64,000 bases of DNA, taken from positions 16,839 through 80,838 of the forward strand of contig JAISCX010000035.1 of assembly GCA_031265235.1 (NCBI GenBank), given 5' to 3'. This DNA comes from Rickettsiales bacterium (lineage in GTDB: Bacteria > Pseudomonadota > Alphaproteobacteria > Rs-D84). The first letter of the stretch is position 1. Every line of letters starts with the position of its first letter. Positions 3,145 to 50,886 of this stretch are shown piece by piece. The translations under genes and the position numbers were made by a program. A model generated the notes under the pieces. The model was not told the origin of the DNA, searched no databases, and was given only the letters and a program-made list of their open reading frames with translations.

Positions 3145-3731
3145 AATTCAAACTACTCTATTTCGGCGAGCTGCGCGTCAATCCGAAAAAACGCGCGCAG
3201 CATATCACGGACATTCGGATGAAATTTCATCCGCAATTGAAAAAATTGGTGGAACATTCCCCGTGGAACAATCTTCAAAAATACATGATGCCCGCCCCGT
3301 CGAAATCGCCGGTCAACACGCGGCATGTCGGCGGAATCGATTTTAATCCGATCATCACGCCCGCGTTGAAGCTGCTTTGCGAATTGGACGTGCAGCTGTT
3401 GCATCCGGAGGTTGTCGGAATCGCCCGCGCGGATATCGATAACCGCATGAAGACGCTGCTGGATGCGCTGCGCTGTCCGCAGAACGAGCATGAGATAGGC
3501 GAAAACCAGCCAAAGGGAATTGGGCCGGTTTATACCCTTCTGGACGACGACCATTTGGTGACCAGATTGTCGGTGAATACTTCGCATTTTCTTGCGCCCA
3601 ATATGTTTGATGTTGACGCGACGGAAAATGCCCCGGTGTCGATAGAACAGGAAGAACGCATTTTCGCAATGATAGATGTGAATGTGCGCGTGGAAGAGGG
3701 GACGCTTGAAAATTTACCATTCATGGTGTGA
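3141..3731 (+). CDS. hypothetical protein (translationally coupled to the upstream secreted protein)
   Basis: 196-aa ORF with a 4-nt ATGA overlap with the preceding ORF. No recognisable domain; it contains an R-x5-H stretch (RCPQNEH) but this is weak. Confidence 0.5.
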   Translation: MKFKLLYFGELRVNPKKRAQHITDIRMKFHPQLKKLVEHSPWNNLQKYMMPAPSKSPVNTRHVGGIDFNPIITPALKLLCELDVQLLHPEVVGIARADIDNRMKTLLDALRCPQNEHEIGENQPKGIGPVYTLLDDDHLVTRLSVNTSHFLAPNMFDVDATENAPVSIEQEERIFAMIDVNVRVEEGTLENLPFMV

Positions 3732-3826
3732 TAAAATTGTCAAAACGCACCGTCTGCCTTGCGTTCGCAATACGCAGCATCCGGCACATTTTGACAATTT
3801 TATCCGCAGGGCGAGGAATATAGAAG

Positions 3827-6570: not shown

Positions 6571-6689
6571 CCCCGCCGAAAGGTCGGGGAGCTGTCGGTT
6601 ATAAAACAGGTTTTCCCGAAGGCCGATGGGATCATTTCTTCTGTATGATTTTTGAACTCCCCGACCGCCAATTCCCTTGGCGGTTTTTC
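6571..6689 (+). promoter_or_regulatory. attenuator-like leader: GNRA hairpin / antiterminator / intrinsic terminator immediately upstream of RBS+ATG of the 6713 gene
   Basis: Hairpin ccccgcc-gaaa-ggtcgggg. The segment ggtcggggag (6582-6591) is complementary to ctccccgacc (6657-6666), which overlaps the terminator accgccaa-ttccc-ttggcggt-ttttt (6663-6689). An AGGAG RBS and the ATG follow. Confidence 0.4.
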
Positions 6690-6712
6690 GTTGCTGAAAA
6701 ATAGGAGCAATC

Positions 6713-13436: not shown

Positions 13437-13655
13437 GCCGGCGAGGTGCAAACAACACTTAGGCGAAAGAAGAACGGCGCATTGCGCGCTTATTAGAACT
13501 TTCCGGGGATGCCCGTTACAGCAGAGAATTTCTTTAATGGTGGTCAATCCAGCGAGAGATAAAGGCGGCAATGGCGACATTATCGCAAAGCAAGGTGGCA
13601 CCGCGTCGCTATCAGACGCCCTTGCATAATGATTTTTCAGACAAAGGATGCCAAA
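13437..13655 (+). promoter_or_regulatory. candidate T-box leader of aspS (~220-nt 5' UTR)
   Basis: AAGCAAGGTGGCACCGCG (13588-13605) matches the T-box consensus AANNNGGGUGGNACCGCG with a UGGC bulge. CCGTTA, an F-box-like element, lies at 13513-18. A possible antiterminator is GCAAGG[UGGCACC]GCGUC-loop-GACGCCCUUGC. Confidence 0.4.
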
Positions 13656-15407
13656 ATGAAGCCAAATATTTACAGATCCCACACCTGCGGCGAATTGTCC
13701 GCAAATGACGTCGGCACATCCGTGAAGCTTTCCGGATGGGTGCACCGCAAGCGCGACCATGGCGGGCTGGTGTTCGTGGATCTGCGCGACAATTACGGGA
13801 TCACCCAGATTGTTTTCGACAACGACGAGGAAATTGAAAAGGTTCGCCCGGAATCCGTAATAATGGTTTCCGGCAAAGTGATCGCGCGCGGGGCAAAGGA
13901 AACAAACCCGAAAATTTCAACCGGCGAAATCGAAGTGGCGGCGAAAGAATGGAATGTTCTGACCAGCGCGGATGTTCTGCCGATCCAGGTATTTGAAAGC
14001 GACGAACTGGCGGCGGAAGAATTGCGGCTTAGATACCGCTATATCGACTTGCGCCGCAAATCGCTGCACGACAATATATTATTTCGCAACAAAGTCATAA
14101 AATTTATGCGCGACAAGATGTGGGATTTGGGATTCTCGGAATTCCAGACACCCGTTCTGACGGTATCGTCGCCGGAAGGGGCCCGCGATTTTCTGGTGCC
14201 CAGCCGCTTTCATCACGGATGTTTTTATGCGCTGCCGCAATCGCCGCAGCAATTCAAGCAGCTTTTGCAGATATCGGGATTCGACCGGTATTTCCAGGTC
14301 GCCCCGTGTTTTCGCGATGAAGATTTGCGCAGCGACAGGCTGTTGGAGCATTATCAGCTTGATTTCGAAATGTCTTTCGTCGAATCCAAAGATATTCAGG
14401 CGGTCGGCAATGCGGTAATTTCCGCCGTGATAAAAGAATTTGTTCCGAATGCGAAGTTTTGTGATGAAATCCCGAATATCACGTATGCCGAAGCGCAATT
14501 AAAATACGGAACGGACAAGCCGGATCTGCGCAACCCGATAATCATTTCGGACGTGTCCGACATATTCCGGGACAGCGAATTCGGGATTTTTGCGGACGCT
14601 GTGAAAAACGGGTCCGCCGTCAGGGCGATACCTGCGCCCAAAACGGCGGACAAGCCGCGGTCCTGGTTTGATAAAACCGAATCTTTTGCCAAGGACGAAT
14701 TAAAGCTGGCCGGTCTGGGATATATTGTCTTTGCCGAAGAAGCCAAAGGGCCCGTCGCAAAAAAGCTGGACGTCGCGCGAATTGAAAAAATACGGGAAAT
14801 CTGCGGTCTGGCGACGGGCGATTCCGTGTTCTTTGTTTGCGACAATGAATCCGCCGCCGCCAAAGCGGCCGGCAGACTGCGCACGCGATTCGGCAACGAT
14901 CTGGGTCTGGTTGATCCCGATGAATTCAAAATGTGCTGGATAGATGATTTCCCGATGTATGAGCAGAACGAGGAAACCGGAACCATAGATTTCGGACACA
15001 ATCCGTTCACAATGCCAAAGTCGTCGCTTGACGGGGACCCGCTGAAAATCGTCGCGCATCAGTTTGACTGTGTCATGAACGGGATGGAACTGTGTTCCGG
15101 CGGTCTGCGCAATTACAATCCTGAAACGATGATAAAGGCGTTCGCAATAGCCGGATACGACGAGGACGAGGTCAAGAAAAAATTCGGCGGAATGTGGAGC
15201 GCGTTTCAATACGGCGCCCCGCCGCACGGCGGCTGTGGCTTTGGGATAGACCGGATCGTTATGATCGCCTTGAAAGAGCCAAGCATGCGCGAAGTCGTCG
15301 CATTTCCGACAAACCAGCGGGGCCAGGATCTGATGATGGGCAGCCCGGCGCCCGTGTCGGAACAGCAGCTGCGCGAAGTGCATATACAGGTTCGAAAGAA
15401 AAGCTAA
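13656..15407 (+). CDS. aspS: aspartyl-tRNA synthetase
   Basis: Start MKPNIYRSHTCGEL. Class II motifs include FRDEDLRSDRLLEHYQLDFEMSF and GGCGFGIDRIVM. Confidence 0.95.
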   Translation: MKPNIYRSHTCGELSANDVGTSVKLSGWVHRKRDHGGLVFVDLRDNYGITQIVFDNDEEIEKVRPESVIMVSGKVIARGAKETNPKISTGEIEVAAKEWNVLTSADVLPIQVFESDELAAEELRLRYRYIDLRRKSLHDNILFRNKVIKFMRDKMWDLGFSEFQTPVLTVSSPEGARDFLVPSRFHHGCFYALPQSPQQFKQLLQISGFDRYFQVAPCFRDEDLRSDRLLEHYQLDFEMSFVESKDIQAVGNAVISAVIKEFVPNAKFCDEIPNITYAEAQLKYGTDKPDLRNPIIISDVSDIFRDSEFGIFADAVKNGSAVRAIPAPKTADKPRSWFDKTESFAKDELKLAGLGYIVFAEEAKGPVAKKLDVARIEKIREICGLATGDSVFFVCDNESAAAKAAGRLRTRFGNDLGLVDPDEFKMCWIDDFPMYEQNEETGTIDFGHNPFTMPKSSLDGDPLKIVAHQFDCVMNGMELCSGGLRNYNPETMIKAFAIAGYDEDEVKKKFGGMWSAFQYGAPPHGGCGFGIDRIVMIALKEPSMREVVAFPTNQRGQDLMMGSPAPVSEQQLREVHIQVRKKS

Positions 15408-15631
15408 TTGCGTTTGCGTGATAATGCGTCAAATCGACGCAAAGACGGCCCCTCGTGTATTTCAATACACGTCGGGCCCGTTTTCATGCCACCTTGCCGC
15501 ATTCTGACGCAAACGCGTCATTTGTATGGTGTATTTTTTCATACTTGTATTTTTAACATATTCGGCATATAATCCAATCGGAATTTAACATTCCGGCAAC
15601 GGGGCCTGATAACCCTTAATACAATGAAATA

Positions 15632-15738
15632 CCCTGCCTAGGGCGGGAGAATGGCGAAATATCCAATACGCCATGCCATTTCCATTGTGTTAGTGGTATC
15701 AGTCTCCCGCCATCTTTTTCAAAGATGGTTTTTTTAAC
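15632..15738 (+). ncRNA. sRNA candidate 1 (stem-enclosed, ends in intrinsic terminator)
   Basis: GGGCGGGAGA...TCTCCCGCC is a long-range stem. The terminator is ccatcttt-ttc-aaagatgg followed by T7. Confidence 0.35.
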
Positions 15739-15745
15739 AAAAAAC

Positions 15746-15845
15746 TTGGGCAGGAGGCCGATGAAATATGTTGAATACATCGGGCTACGATCTTGGTAGA
15801 TTGAACCTCCTGCCACTTTTGATTTTCAAAGGTGGTTTTTTATAT
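15746..15845 (+). ncRNA. sRNA candidate 2 (paralogue of candidate 1, ends in intrinsic terminator)
   Basis: GGGCAGGAGG...CCTCCTGCC is the enclosing stem. It shares the GAAATAT...AATAC core with candidate 1. The terminator is ccacttttg-atttt-caaaggtgg followed by T6. Confidence 0.35.
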
Positions 15846-15863
15846 AACCCAAGGAAGGATTAA

Positions 15864-16034
15864 ATGTTTACAAAATTTGCAACATATAAAGAAGTCAGGG
15901 AAATGGTTGAAAACAATCTGCAAAATGATATTGCAATAGACTTTATCATGAAATATATTTTTGAGACCAGAAAAAGAATTAAAAATCTTTTAAAAGAATT
16001 GGAATCTTTGAAAGACCCAGAAAAAATCGATTAG
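15864..16034 (+). CDS. small hypothetical protein (56 aa; below ORF-track cutoff)
   Basis: ATG at 15864 preceded by an AAGGAAGG RBS at a spacing of 5 nt. Translation MFTKFATYKEVREMVENNLQ...KDPEKID. Confidence 0.4.
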   Translation: MFTKFATYKEVREMVENNLQNDIAIDFIMKYIFETRKRIKNLLKELESLKDPEKID

Positions 16035-16134: not shown

Positions 16135-16503
16135 CATATGAACAAAGCCCGGCTGGAAAAGATTTCAGAACATTTGCGGCTGTCGCCTTATCAGACGTAT
16201 ATTCTGTCCATGAACATGCAGAAATACAAGATGGACAGGCTGGTCAAGCGCGGCGATGTTTTATATGCGCCTTATCGATGCTCGCTGCCGCGCGGAATGC
16301 GCGATTATTTTTCCAAACTGTTCCTGGGCCCGCGGGCGGACCTGATTGGTGCCGATAGAATGCTGGTAATCGGCCGCCGCGGAATAAGACTGTATCCGAC
16401 CGGGTTTTACAAAGCGTGCGACAATACCGGCCGTTCTTACTATGCCGATTCAATGGGACAAAAAATAGAGAGAAGTTTGTTCGAAGATATTCTTGGATTA
16501 TAG
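16135..16503 (+). CDS. hypothetical protein
   Basis: ORF taken from MHMNKARLEK; a longer version starts at 16087. No domain recognised. Confidence 0.45.
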   Translation, partial: HMNKARLEKISEHLRLSPYQTYILSMNMQKYKMDRLVKRGDVLYAPYRCSLPRGMRDYFSKLFLGPRADLIGADRMLVIGRRGIRLYPTGFYKACDNTGRSYYADSMGQKIERSLFEDILGL

Positions 16504-48104: not shown

Positions 48105-48251
48105 ATCCGCCGCTGATTTTTAGATTAACGTTTAATATATCTTTATTTTTCTGACATTTCTGTTATAATTAACTTGTCGCAGGGTGTTCCCGCGGCGGGG
48201 GATGATTGCCCCTTTATTGGCGTCTATGAAGACGAAAAACTCCAGCCCGAC

Positions 48252-48345
48252 GGTTGGAGGGTTCGCGTTATACATTGAAAGCGCGACACAATTTCCAATA
48301 AATTGCAATCAACCTCCAACCGCCAATGTTTTGGTGGTTTTTTGT
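48252..48345 (+). promoter_or_regulatory. attenuator-like leader (paralogue of 6571-6689) upstream of large Cys-rich secreted protein gene
   Basis: ggttggagg (48252-60) is complementary to cctccaacc (48313-21), which overlaps the terminator aaccgccaa-tgtt-ttggtggtt-tttttt (48318-48345). The terminator core accgccaat is shared with the 6663 terminator. Confidence 0.4.
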
Positions 48346-48360
48346 ATAAAAGAATATATC

Positions 48361-50886
48361 ATGAAAAAAATTTTGATATTTTCAACGTTGTGCATGACGC
48401 TTGCTTTCGGCGCGCGCGCCGACGACTGCATCATGGACCAGTTTCTGGGTACAAAGATTTCCTGCAACGACAGCTGTGCCGGCGATTGGGAAATGAAATG
48501 GGGCGCGGTGTCATTCGGTCAATGCCCGTACGGCCAGATGCGGGAATGCTATGAGCAGCGCCTGCTTATCGGCGTCAACGACAAATGGACGGCGTGCAAG
48601 AACCGTGGCAGCTCTGGCCGCAGTTTTGTATGTCCCAATGCGCCGGACGAATTGCCCCTATATGCAACGACCAAAGGCGTTGCTAACATGCTTGACAAGG
48701 CTCACCCGACGACTTGGTGGGACGGTACTGTATCTTATAACAGGACGTATCTCGCGCTGACCAAAGCGAACAATAATAACTGGTGCTGGACATTTGAATG
48801 CCCGTCGGACAAGCCGTGGCATCTTTGGCTTGACGGCAGAAATGAGTGCGTCGCCGCATGCGGAGACGCGGGCGCCTATGCCCCTTATGGCGAACACACT
48901 TGCGGCCATTGCAGACAGAATTCTGACTATAGACTTGCAGACGGCAAATGCATAAGAAGACAAAACTACGACTATAAAGGATGCTATCAAAGAGTTAATG
49001 CTGTGCTGAAATCCGTCAGTCTTGGCGAAGACGTCAACGGTTTCTGCATACCGTCGGAAATTGATCCTAAAATGTCCCGTTATGCCATAATGGTGGGGGG
49101 CCAGCTTTGGCAAATACCGCTTTCGATAGAAAAAGAAAATGATATGTTGATGGCGTTAGGATGGACAGATTATAAAAAAGATGCCCCATGGTGCTGGGCT
49201 GAAGAAAAGATGAAGGAACCGAAAAAAAACGGTTTCAAAAAAATCCCAAGATGCAAAAAAAGTACAAGTTCCGCCGCATCGGCCGCGATGGTCGCAGGCA
49301 ACTGCATAACCGATCCGTTCTCCCAGAAAAACATCTGTTGTAATAATGACACCCTTTACAGCACGTCTTTTTACGGCTGCGAATATCCAAATCTGACATG
49401 GTGCGGACAAGACGGCAAATGGTCGGATTGCGGCATTGCGACCGTCGGTATAATTGGGACGGACGGAAAAGACATTGCCGGGATATGCACGATTGATAAC
49501 CTGAATACAGATTTGTATGAGTATGAAAAGCACCAGAATGGCAAGGCGAGTTTTTCATTCAAGAACAACAAACTTATGCATAATGTCTGCTGGGATTCGG
49601 TGCAGCCCAAGGCCGAAAGCAATATGTACCGGAGGTCTGGAACTCTATCGGATGGAACCGATTGTGAAGCAAAATGGGCGAACAAAGACAAAACCAAGTG
49701 CGTTGATCGTTGCGAAGATTCTATTATTTACGCATCAGATATTGATTCCGAACAAAAATTTGTCTGGGTGGCAAAAGATGACTGCGCTGGATTTTACTGC
49801 GCCGACGAAGCTGGAAATCCGGATCCGAATCTTGTTTGGGATTATTTTGTTGAAAAGCATAACAATAAAATAAAGTGCACGTCAAAAGATAGAACAGATA
49901 ACTCGCAACAGTCGGGAGAATCCACCAAGAAAGAACAGGAACAGAGGGAAACCGAAGAAACGCGGCTAGCAAATGAACGTGAATCGGCGCGTCTGGATCG
50001 AGAACGCGAGCAAAAACTCGCCGCCATAGAAACCATGATAACATCGCACACTAAAACAATGTCAGATATCAAATCCGCGCATGCGGGCGACAAGGTCAGC
50101 GCCTGGAAGACTGCGGACGGGAATTTCAACGGCGCGCGCTTGGCGTCCGATTCCATCGCGGGCGCCGCAATCGGCACGCTGGGCGGCGTCATCACGTTCA
50201 ACATCATAAAGAAAAACCAAATAAACAATGGATTCGACGACCTGGATTGCGTTGTCGGGGGTGCGGGAACGGCCAATGTAGGGGCGCCCCTACAAATAAC
50301 TATCAGCTGGGGGGACGTGTTCATGATATCCGGACCCACAACCAAGAAAGACTGCGAAGCGGCGTCAAACGGCCGGAACAATATCTTTGTCTGGGCGGCA
50401 AAGACCGGCACGGGCGCGGATTATGCGACTTTACGCGAAGACATGAAAGACACGGCGAATAATGCGTGCTGGGTCCGTGTTGATATCATATCGAAAGATC
50501 CAAACATCAATACGGATCTGATGAAGCCACGATGGTTTATGACGGGCGCCCGGGAAACATGCGGCGGTTGGCTGGACGAGAATTTTGTGCGGCAAAAGAT
50601 ATTGGACGCGAAAAAGACAAAGCGGACATGGGGGACTGTGGCTGGCGCGGTTGGGGGCGCGGCGGTTGGCGTCGGCACCATGGAATTGTTTGGGAACAAG
50701 CTGATCGGCGGCAAGGTGATGGGCCAGAAAGCATTAAAGGAAGAAGAGCTGTTGCGGAGCCAGATATTGGCAGGTCCCGGCGGTGCGGCGGAATGGACAC
50801 GGTATGAATCCGCAAAAGCAGGACTGGCCGCCGCATGCAATGAATTGCGCGCAGCGGGCGGGAAATTGCCGAAAGAGTGCGAATGA
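48361..50886 (+). CDS. large secreted cysteine-rich protein with Glu/Arg-rich coiled segment and Gly-rich C-terminus (hypothetical surface/effector-like)
   Basis: Signal MKKILIFSTLCMTLAFGARA, then more than 40 Cys in the N-terminal 550 aa. TKKEQEQRETEETRLANERESARLDREREQKLAA is a charged helix, and the C-terminus is a GxxxG-rich hydrophobic segment. Confidence 0.6.
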   Translation: MKKILIFSTLCMTLAFGARADDCIMDQFLGTKISCNDSCAGDWEMKWGAVSFGQCPYGQMRECYEQRLLIGVNDKWTACKNRGSSGRSFVCPNAPDELPLYATTKGVANMLDKAHPTTWWDGTVSYNRTYLALTKANNNNWCWTFECPSDKPWHLWLDGRNECVAACGDAGAYAPYGEHTCGHCRQNSDYRLADGKCIRRQNYDYKGCYQRVNAVLKSVSLGEDVNGFCIPSEIDPKMSRYAIMVGGQLWQIPLSIEKENDMLMALGWTDYKKDAPWCWAEEKMKEPKKNGFKKIPRCKKSTSSAASAAMVAGNCITDPFSQKNICCNNDTLYSTSFYGCEYPNLTWCGQDGKWSDCGIATVGIIGTDGKDIAGICTIDNLNTDLYEYEKHQNGKASFSFKNNKLMHNVCWDSVQPKAESNMYRRSGTLSDGTDCEAKWANKDKTKCVDRCEDSIIYASDIDSEQKFVWVAKDDCAGFYCADEAGNPDPNLVWDYFVEKHNNKIKCTSKDRTDNSQQSGESTKKEQEQRETEETRLANERESARLDREREQKLAAIETMITSHTKTMSDIKSAHAGDKVSAWKTADGNFNGARLASDSIAGAAIGTLGGVITFNIIKKNQINNGFDDLDCVVGGAGTANVGAPLQITISWGDVFMISGPTTKKDCEAASNGRNNIFVWAAKTGTGADYATLREDMKDTANNACWVRVDIISKDPNINTDLMKPRWFMTGARETCGGWLDENFVRQKILDAKKTKRTWGTVAGAVGGAAVGVGTMELFGNKLIGGKVMGQKALKEEELLRSQILAGPGGAAEWTRYESAKAGLAAACNELRAAGGKLPKECE

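Follow-up and report, generated by a model that had tools for sequence, protein, structure and literature searches.

A terminator-capped, C4/sRNA-Xcc1-like RNA family in the probable leaders of accessory genes of an uncultured gut alphaproteobacterial clade and its phages

C4-type antisense RNAs are phage immunity regulators of Gammaproteobacteria that act by occluding a ribosome-binding site (RBS), and differences between their address sequences set the immunity specificity of phages P1 and P7. The annotation of the phage P1 record gives the order a1 (48255-61), b1 (48269-76), c4 RNA (48343-48419), a2 (48423-29) and b2 (48452-59), followed by icd and ant; the C4 RNA folds as a three-way junction in which a′ is the joiner J3/1 (CUGUCAA) and b′ is the loop of stem P3 (UCACUAAC). 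A 'c4 antisense RNA' and a 'c4-a1b1' motif were both listed by Weinberg et al. 2010 (PMC2864571). Another structured small RNA (sRNA), sRNA-Xcc1, was detected by northern blotting as a discrete RNA of 88 nt (PMC2996969) and has been reported in tandem arrays in Xylella (PMC12189769), 5′ of symE in integron cassettes (bioRxiv 10.1101/2025.06.18.660453) and 5′ of an ORF6N gene in an APSE phage (bioRxiv 10.1101/2020.03.17.996009); this literature treats sRNA-Xcc1 as virulence-linked and does not describe C4-type logic. Here we describe a locus in a stretch of 64,000 nt (the whole of which is called 'the window' below) from contig JAISCX010000035.1 of a Rickettsiales bacterium, where two tandem units lie between aspS and a small open reading frame (ORF) of 56 aa, orf56. 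These units are real, conserved structured RNAs, paralogous to each other, encoded on the + strand and furnished with intrinsic terminators. They belong to a multi-copy conserved RNA family, absent from Rfam, of gut Alphaproteobacteria of the Enterousia clade and their phages. We read the cassette at 15545-16034 as a promoter, a structured leader, two serial C4-like terminator-capped junction modules and a 56-aa gene, which together would form a self-addressed attenuating leader; we put the probability of this reading at about 0.6.

Each unit folds as a three-way junction, in which P2 and P3 are enclosed by a closing stem (P1) of 9 bp and a 6-nt joiner (J3/1) connects P3 to P1; the terminator follows directly. 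P2 has 6 bp, an AAA bulge and then UAU/AUA, while P3 is short; the sequences of both stems differ between the two units and the pairing is kept. Folding energies compared with shuffled sequences give z from −3.5 to −5.0 on the + strand, and unit 1 is weaker on the − strand. A preliminary description of this DNA had already placed here two paralogous, terminator-capped units of ~100 nt with long-range enclosing stems, a common GAAATAT...AATAC core and, further on, a 56-aa ORF with a strong RBS. These observations were borne out: the model matches, stems and terminators lie as listed below, the core has two matches in the window, both in these units, against 0.25 expected, and the start of orf56, 20 nt past unit 2, falls within the spacing that is usual in the family. 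The features are as follows.

13629-15407: aspS, with its own terminator-like hairpin at about 15445-15485 (putative, read by eye)
15545-15573, + strand: probable sigma-70 promoter, TTGTAT-17 nt-TATAAT, with the −10 element at 15568-15573 (read by eye)
15580-15631, + strand: 5′ leader domain of unit 1, in a leader of ~60 nt, with hairpins H1 (15580-15594) and H2 (15601-15615)
15606-15611, + strand: H2 loop CUGAUA, complementary to J3/1 of unit 1
15616-15630, + strand: leader linker UUAAUACAAUGAAAU, complementary to the P3 loop of unit 1
15632-15638, + strand: anti-P1 segment 'A', CCCUGCC, complementary to the P1 5′ strand GGCGGG of unit 1
15641-15711, + strand: three-way junction of unit 1 (model match including terminator, 15641-15736)
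15642-15650 with 15703-15711, + strand: P1 of unit 1, 9 bp, GGCGGGAGA/UCUCCCGCC
15651-15656 with 15669-15674, + strand: P2 of unit 1, apical AAAUAUCCAAUA
15676-15679 with 15693-15696, + strand: P3 of unit 1, loop 15680-15692; J3/1 UAUCAG at 15697-15702
15709-15735, + strand: intrinsic terminator 1, stem 15709-15729 and then T7 (terminator scan)
15748-15814, + strand: three-way junction of unit 2 (model match including terminator, 15748-15843)
15749-15757 with 15806-15814, + strand: P1 of unit 2, 9 bp, GGCAGGAGG/CCUCCUGCC
15758-15763 with 15778-15783, + strand: P2 of unit 2
15785-15788 with 15796-15799, + strand: P3 of unit 2, loop GAUCUUG at 15789-15795; J3/1 AUUGAA at 15800-15805
15812-15842, + strand: intrinsic terminator 2, stem 15812-15836 and then T6 (terminator scan)
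15851-15859 and 15864-16034, + strand: RBS AAGGAAGGA and orf56, stop codon included

The cassette lies in a stretch 3′ of aspS with 33-42% G+C, the surroundings having ~50%. Its promoter was not listed by the consensus scan, because the −35 element fits the consensus at only three of six positions; TTGAAA-17-TATAAT occurs at the equivalent relative position in family members of related genomes. Terminator 1 begins with 2-3 bases (GCC) that also form the 3′ end of P1 in unit 1, and terminator 2 has GCC in common with P1 of unit 2 in the same way. Neither promoter nor leader nor anti-P1 segment belongs to unit 2, which begins 12 nt past terminator 1. The Logan assembly of SRR14710921 carries an identical locus, which confirms the assembly and adds no variation.

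A covariance model built from unit 1 alone (R1) recovers unit 2 (55 bits) and a further copy at 48251-48345 (32 bits, E 2e-6). Models R2 and R3 were iterated over the window and the loci of relatives, a set of 50 aspS loci (L numbers below also denote other sequences used) from gut metagenome-assembled genomes (MAGs) named Candidatus Enterousia, Rickettsiales or Alphaproteobacteria, with aspS identity of at most 74%. Unit 1 scores 99.6 bits with R2 and 79.6 bits with R3, unit 2 scores 87 and 80.1 bits, and the window and the 50 loci together yield 16 members: four in the window (6581-6691, 15641-15736, 15748-15843 and 48251-48345) and 12 in relatives of the Candidatus Enterousia clade. A pattern scan of viral contigs adds four matches at 53-64 bits (L057, L062, L058 and L061), and as L057 and L062 are sequence-identical these amount to three distinct viral sequences; in L061 the 3′ hairpin is kept and the U-tract is absent. 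Five to six members make up a subfamily whose longer P2 holds an extra small hairpin; the idea that this inner hairpin, GGGGCAACCC..GAAAG, is a c-di-GMP-I element found no Rfam support. The two other copies of the window are laid out as follows.

48161-48345, + strand: third copy, with an extended −10 promoter TGTTATAAT at 48161-48169 and leader hairpins H1/H2/H3
48239-48246, + strand: anti-P1 segment CUCCAGCC of the third copy
48251-48345, + strand: junction and terminator of the third copy
6581-6691, + strand: fourth copy, longer-P2 subfamily, 21 nt 5′ of ATG 6713

The third copy, whose cognate sites are UGAUUGC and UUUAUUGG, ends 15 nt 5′ of the ATG at 48361 of an 841-aa secreted protein without a Pfam family; the fourth has a promoter and a leader and is followed by the gene of a 375-aa secreted protein, again without a Pfam family. 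At gathering level Rfam 15 yields two tRNAs in the whole window and nothing else, and at E≤10 it gives no meaningful match in the 701-nt region that holds units 1 and 2; the top Rfam match for the units, a PyrR site, is noise (21.9 bits, E 1.4). BLAST searches of the cassette against phage and plasmid collections gave no match. The strict motif GGGCRGGAGR-N5-GAAATAT..AATAC has none in the viral contigs, and its two matches in metagenomes (L001 764-797 and L002 2431-2464) are due to chance, being inside a 5-aminolevulinate synthase coding stretch, GAGAGGTRNISGN.

Between units 1 and 2 and the third copy, both sides change in 14 of the 28 base pairs, and 97.6% of cells are paired as against 35-50% in slid controls. 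In an alignment of 15 sequences both sides change in 21 of 28 pairs, and paired cells make up 92.1% (100% in P1) as against 35-59% with the partner slid, values somewhat inflated since the alignment was fitted to the covariance model. The three-way-junction structure is still secure, in view of how far the slid controls fall below these values and of the variety of pair types, and the covariation for which the preliminary description had looked to related genomes is present. It also bears on the possibility that we are dealing with a miniature mobile repeat of the MITE, Correia or RPE type, with P1 as its terminal inverted repeats. Such an element would be multi-copy, would carry terminal inverted repeats of 9-10 bp and would sit, as the cassette does, in intergenic DNA within an insertion relative to relatives. 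The 'inverted repeats' and the internal helices covary, however, so that pairing and not sequence is conserved; moreover, the G-U pairs and U-tracts fit one strand, the orientation is always that of the next gene, and no target-site duplication is seen around the cassette. We consider this explanation scarcely tenable.

P1 is nearly invariant in the family, whereas two address sequences vary from copy to copy. In every copy with a leader the H2 loop is complementary to the J3/1 of that copy, and the linker 3′ of H2 matches its P3 loop in the same way, as the following four examples illustrate.

Unit 1: H2 loop with J3/1, CUGAUA:UAUCAG; linker with P3 loop, ACAAUG..AAAU:AUUUCCAUUGU
48251 copy: H2 loop with J3/1, UGAUUG:CAAUCA; linker with P3 loop, UUAUUGG:CCAAUAA
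L025: H2 loop with J3/1, UUCAACA:UGUUGAA; linker with P3 loop, GUAUGCGC:GCGCAUAC
L022: H2 loop with J3/1, UUCAAAA:UUUUGAA; linker with P3 loop, AUAAUUGCA:UGCAAUUAU

The mean duplex energy of cognate leader-junction pairs is −17.3 kcal/mol, compared with −10.1 kcal/mol for non-cognate pairs (standard deviation 3.0), and the cognate leader ranks first of 17 in 14 of the 17 columns; the exceptions are the leaderless unit 2, L043 C, with a leader that lacks hairpins, and L020, at rank 2. Watson-Crick runs show the same preference, with 6.8 for cognate and 4.25 for non-cognate pairs at J3/1 and 7.4 and 4.86, respectively, at the P3 loop. In all cases the leader sites are 10-15 nt apart, with the J3/1 partner first. 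For unit 1, the full-length minimum free energy (MFE) fold pairs the leader segments with the junction through Watson-Crick runs of 6 and 6, and the combination CTGATA..ACAATG is unique in the window, where its two matches are the site and its own antisense (0.12 expected). The preliminary description had proposed that units 1 and 2 could pair with each other through the CCUGCC of unit 1; the leader of unit 1 in fact pairs with unit 1 (−20.8 kcal/mol) and not with unit 2 (−6.1 kcal/mol), and CCUGCC is better read as a family-wide segment which pairs with the P1 5′ strand of unit 1 itself.

This C-rich segment, complementary to the P1 5′ strand and situated directly 5′ of P1, occurs in 13 of 16 members, examples being CCUGCC in unit 1 (15633-15638), CUCCAGCC at 48239 and UUCCUGAC in L010. 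It changes in step with P1, and the G-U pairs that it forms are commoner than those in P1. When the first 62 nt are folded, the anti-P1 hairpin results in all tested members except 6581-6691. Two states were compared by constrained folding, the anti-P1 hairpin with the full terminator and the P1 junction; the median difference between them is 1.1 kcal/mol (range −2.9 to +5.5), with 1.5 kcal/mol in unit 1. In unit 2, which has no anti-P1 segment, the P1 fold is favoured by 8.4 kcal/mol. A conserved alternative helix which is nearly isoenergetic with P1 points to a switch.

A switch of this design might be taken for a tandem metabolite or ion riboswitch, where the junction would be the aptamer and the ligand, by stabilising P1, would set the fate of the terminator. 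Consistent with this are a three-way junction with conserved junction and loop nucleotides, the bases common to P1 and the terminator, the anti-P1 helix of similar energy, the tandem arrangement and the 5′-leader position. The elements that would line the pocket, J3/1 and the P3 loop, vary in every copy, however, and are matched by the leader, and a G+C-rich P1 of 9-10 bp should form in the ligand-free state. In addition, the downstream genes have no common pathway, there are four copies in 64 kb and further ones in phages, and no known riboswitch model matches; a riboswitch is therefore very unlikely.

The anatomy is that of C4 (RF01695). In C4 as in the family, the three-way junction is closed by the 5′ and 3′ ends of the RNA, the P3 loop (b′) and J3/1 (a′) pair with two upstream sites ~14 nt apart of which the J3/1 partner comes first, the RNA is embedded in the leader of the genes that come next, and the address sequences vary among relatives. 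The leader sites of unit 1, the H2 loop and the linker, are the equivalent of a1 and b1 of phage P1. Upstream complementarity of the a1/b1 type was found for unit 1 and for 14 of the 17 members tested, and was missing for the leaderless unit 2. The precursor of phage P1 C4 (L067 48330-48352) even has, 8 nt 5′ of C4, an ACGCCC complementary to GGGCGU of the closing stem, which, read by eye, resembles the anti-P1 segment of the family. Differences from C4 lie downstream: the family has no a2/b2 at the downstream RBS and instead has an intrinsic terminator directly after the junction, the genes that follow are not icd and ant, and the hosts are Alphaproteobacteria. Sites resembling a2/b2, looked for 60-110 nt 3′ of the copies, show no preference for their own copy, with −7.7 kcal/mol for cognate and −7.6 kcal/mol for non-cognate pairs and runs of 4.8 vs 4.5 and 5.4 vs 4.9; a duplex between the downstream RBS and either the P1 3′ strand or the junction elements was tried as well and gave no cognate signal. 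RF01695 and RF01394 (the latter the IsrK model) have no gathering-level match in the window, and none at E≤5-10 on short stretches.

The sRNA-Xcc1 model RF02221 matches 6582-6674, within the copy at 6581-6691, with 35.6 bits (E 5e-5 on 181 nt), below the gathering score of 53. This copy is the sole family member to match; the other members with a longer P2 are absent at E≤10 in 68.7 kb, so that one of six reaches the model. Four bona fide Xcc1 loci from IMG/VR contigs (L063 3534-3621, L064 10873-10957, L065 1291-1374 and L066 1659-1746), which score 59-84 bits with RF02221, are among the top matches of R3, at a weak 16-19 bits (E 0.01-0.06). sRNA-Xcc1 may be related to the family by sequence: the topology is the same and several unpaired stretches are similar, with a P2 internal loop AUA(C/A)AA.A, then a small hairpin and GAA, and with GCC after P1; J3/1 reads UUUGAG in sRNA-Xcc1 and UUUGAA in the family, and units 1 and 2 differ from Xcc1 in having no inner P2 hairpin. 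Habits of sRNA-Xcc1 are also met in the family, namely tandem arrays, residence in mobile elements or phages and a position 5′ of small accessory genes. In the four Xcc1 loci partners of J3/1 and of the P3 loop are found both upstream (at about −75 and −62) and downstream (+7 to +46), and the second downstream site adjoins the Shine-Dalgarno sequence or the start codon of the next gene. Genes after three of the four loci are KilA-N or Bro-N antirepressor-like, as read from sequence. With the full a1b1/a2b2 logic in four loci, sRNA-Xcc1 itself looks like a C4-type antisense regulator. The four loci differ from the family in that they possess a2/b2 partners and have no U-tract terminator directly after the junction.

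Two further systems resemble the cassette in layout or in logic. IsrK of the Salmonella Gifsy-1 prophage is reported, in work by Hershko-Shalev et al. from 2016, to exist in two forms, a short RNA that ends at a terminator and the 5′ portion of a longer mRNA; it has in common with the cassette a promoter, a structured RNA, a terminator, read-through and a small ORF, with a short RNA proposed to act on its own long transcript, and there is no sequence or model match between the two. In the antisense attenuation of plasmids pT181 and pIP501, the nascent leader picks either a pre-emptor helix or an intrinsic terminator, and kissing with a copy-specific RNA biases the choice. There the antisense RNA comes from the opposite strand, whereas the partners in the family are on one strand and in one transcript, with no replication gene.

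As to position, 16 of the 20 copies end 10-22 nt before the RBS and start codon of a co-oriented ORF, which leaves no space for another promoter. The four others are unit 1 of the window, L043 A and L010 a, each of which precedes another copy, and L043 C, the last one in its array. Since 16 of 20 copies abut a co-oriented gene start, a 5′ leader with an attenuating terminator fits better than a free-standing sRNA gene. In the preliminary description the units were presented as sRNA candidates with CCUCC-type anti-Shine-Dalgarno sequences, reminiscent of alphaproteobacterial sRNA families, with ar14, ar15 and AbcR as the types to compare; in a full form of this proposal they would be free-standing, trans-acting siblings, AbcR1/2-like or like the ar14 'cuckoo' sRNAs, whose CCUCC represses many mRNAs, and the ORF would be unrelated. 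The likeness is real in so far as the units, like ar14, ar15 and AbcR, are ~100-nt, terminator-capped tandem paralogues with a C/U-rich CCUCC; both end in a good intrinsic terminator that carries a U-tail, siblings in tandem are frequent among alphaproteobacterial sRNAs, and in the anti-P1 fold the strand with CCUCC would be unpaired. The anti-Shine-Dalgarno motifs of ar14, ar15 and AbcR lie in loops, whereas CCUCC of the units is part of the 9-bp closing stem. It covaries away in other members, which have UACCCGACC or CUUCCUGACC, and is absent from sRNA-Xcc1, which has CCCCCGGCC. Nor does Rfam give a match to ar14, ar15, AbcR or another sRNA family, with none of these three found even at E≤10 on 701 nt. 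Unit 2 is promoterless, the viral copy L061 has no U-tract, most copies adjoin a gene start as said, and the conserved unpaired elements of junction and loop pair with the leader of the RNA itself. The detection of sRNA-Xcc1 as a discrete 88-nt species (PMC2996969) speaks for sRNAs, and short terminated RNAs, roughly 100-190 nt long, are indeed to be expected here; what did not survive is the notion of two independent sRNA genes, as promoter and leader exist at unit 1 only. On balance, free-standing sRNAs are quite unlikely.

In the attenuating leader that we favour, transcription from 15545-15573 would mostly stop at terminator 1 or 2, giving short stable RNAs of ~155 or ~260 nt, or of ~95 nt if they are cut at the base of P1 in the way RNase P cuts C4. 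The orf56 product would be made only from transcripts that read through both terminators, with the fold of the nascent leader setting the frequency of read-through. One predicted fold has the anti-P1 hairpin and the full terminator; the other has P1 and the leader-junction contacts and would remove 2-3 G-C pairs at the base of the terminator. The terminated short RNA would then act in trans: it would pair with the a1/b1-like sites on transcripts of its own copy while these are being made, and would thereby favour termination. Feedback in trans is favoured because the addresses differ in every copy while P1 is nearly invariant, and its parallels would be the action of C4 on its own operon and antisense-induced attenuation in pT181. 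Unit 1 would be the addressed switch. Unit 2 would either add another terminator that works constitutively or be an orphan antisense RNA aimed at some other locus; lacking leader and anti-P1 segment, unit 2 is predicted to stay in the P1 fold. More tentatively, the family might be a whole class of self-addressed attenuators in which each accessory gene has a private two-part address and feedback in trans reaches its own copy only, orphan modules such as unit 2 serving as 'immunity' RNAs against matching leaders, e.g. those of incoming phages; we hold this extension to be possible, though on the unlikely side.

The same pairings could be explained with no switch at all, by a purely intramolecular cassette, a folded 5′ UTR with a terminator, which would insulate and stabilise acquired genes and would spread as it is duplicated, the pairings being tertiary contacts. 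All complementarities do lie inside one transcript, and there is no a2/b2 target. L022 has identical leader-junction copies before unrelated genes, and in the viral contig L057 a copy near lysozyme-, phospholipase D (PLD)- and methylase-like ORFs precedes a secreted-protein gene. Yet a strong terminator between a strong promoter and a gene makes little sense without a means of passage, the conserved, nearly isoenergetic alternative helix suggests a switch, the addresses diverge far faster than P1, which argues for specificity, and the same anatomy belongs, by annotation, to a proven trans-acting antisense regulator in phage P1. An insulating cassette of this sort we judge unlikely.

Several considerations weigh against the self-addressed attenuating leader. 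Termination, read-through and processing are all predicted. The link from fold to termination is the weakest step: by the folding models, P1 and the terminator overlap by just 2-3 nt, so that P1 need not prevent termination, the MFE fold of unit 1 shortens P1 and keeps the terminator, and the thermodynamics do not show P1 abolishing the terminator. The contacts between leader and junction may be no more than pseudoknots within one molecule, with no action in trans. Pairing of a2/b2 at the RBS of the regulated gene, the step which defines C4, is absent here. The likeness to C4 and sRNA-Xcc1 could be convergence of architecture: R3 gives phage P1 C4 8.5 bits only, and units 1 and 2 have no match to RF02221, RF01695 or RF01394 at E≤10. 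For unit 2, no cognate partner was found in the window, the search for the bipartite pattern being at chance level; a window-wide duplex scan for this partner was uninformative, as background values of −18 to −25 kcal/mol exceeded those of true cognates and the positive controls were not in the top matches. Finally, the orphan gene orf56 may be silent.

In relatives the order aspS, orf121 (16138-16503 in the window), asmA (− strand) and uvrB is conserved, and both the units and orf56 are missing from the aspS-orf121 spacer, which is 110-380 nt long there; the cassette is thus an insertion specific to this lineage. The preliminary description had called orf56 unannotated, while the protein database lists it as 'MAG: hypothetical protein LBK26_04125 [Rickettsiales bacterium]'. 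A search of 5.8 billion proteins yields no homologue of orf56, Pfam and PHROG searches give weak, chance-level matches only, and AlphaFold2, run on the single sequence, predicts for it one long helix over residues 2-49 with a predicted local distance difference test (pLDDT) score of 89. A type III toxin-antitoxin system (ToxIN-like) was rejected, given the single helix and the chance-level matches of orf56; PADLOC was not searched. A leader peptide, GGAGG..AUG AAA UAU, was discarded too, as neither frame nor length is conserved and L043 copy C has a 1-nt deletion.

Across the family, the genes downstream are heterogeneous; they encode secreted or membrane proteins that fall in no Pfam family, helix-turn-helix proteins of the XRE type, a GT8 glycosyltransferase and the orphan helix protein. 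The ORFs around the copy on viral contig L057 are lysozyme-like, phospholipase-D-like and methyltransferase-like, as read from their translations. Tandem arrays also stand 5′ of aspS, with two copies in L010 (5021-5108 and 5221-5318) and three in L043 (5037-5735); in both loci every copy is preceded by a separate promoter of the TTGAAA-17-TATAAT type. The two L010 copies have one address in common (CGUAAGA) and similar second addresses, and could on that ground cross-talk. In L022, copies at 797-901 and 3683-3787 (− strand) with identical leader, junction and addresses precede unrelated genes of 83 and 152 aa, and this cassette appears to have been duplicated recently.

The neighbouring orf121, of 121 aa, lies between aspS and asmA in nearly all relatives with 33-89% identity, belongs to no Pfam or PHROG family and has a promoter-like TTGTATCAT sequence of its own. 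Its closest relative is in L023, where short AAAGTTGAAAGTT-type and inverted repeats occur on both sides of the gene (2500-2560 and 3240-3400) and may be a small repeat element. T-box leaders would be unusual in Alphaproteobacteria. Weak matches to them were seen directly 5′ of aspS in four relatives (L015 5644-5907, L025 5713-5913, L022 5712-5907 and L010 5683-5921), the best with 39.5 bits (E 3e-5; gathering score 93); upstream of aspS in the window there is no T-box match at gathering level.

We regard the family as a variant of the C4/sRNA-Xcc1 kind of antisense RNA that carries a terminator and provides the leaders of accessory genes in uncultured gut bacteria and their phages. It is a covariation-supported relative of C4, or a convergent look-alike, which is absent from Rfam, multi-copy in an uncultured clade of gut Alphaproteobacteria and also present in predicted viral contigs. 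Compared with C4 the wiring is altered: the upstream address sites are kept, the downstream sites are lost, an intrinsic terminator is gained, and the module stands before genes for small regulators and secreted proteins. A further lesson of the two units is that what looks like a terminator-capped 'sRNA' beside a small ORF can be a leader module. If feedback in trans is true, nature would offer in this family a collection of orthogonal RNA attenuators whose addresses can be programmed, of interest to RNA and synthetic biology. If the wider class of self-addressed attenuators is true, these bacteria would possess a dose-sensing control of many acquired genes which works by termination and not by RBS occlusion.

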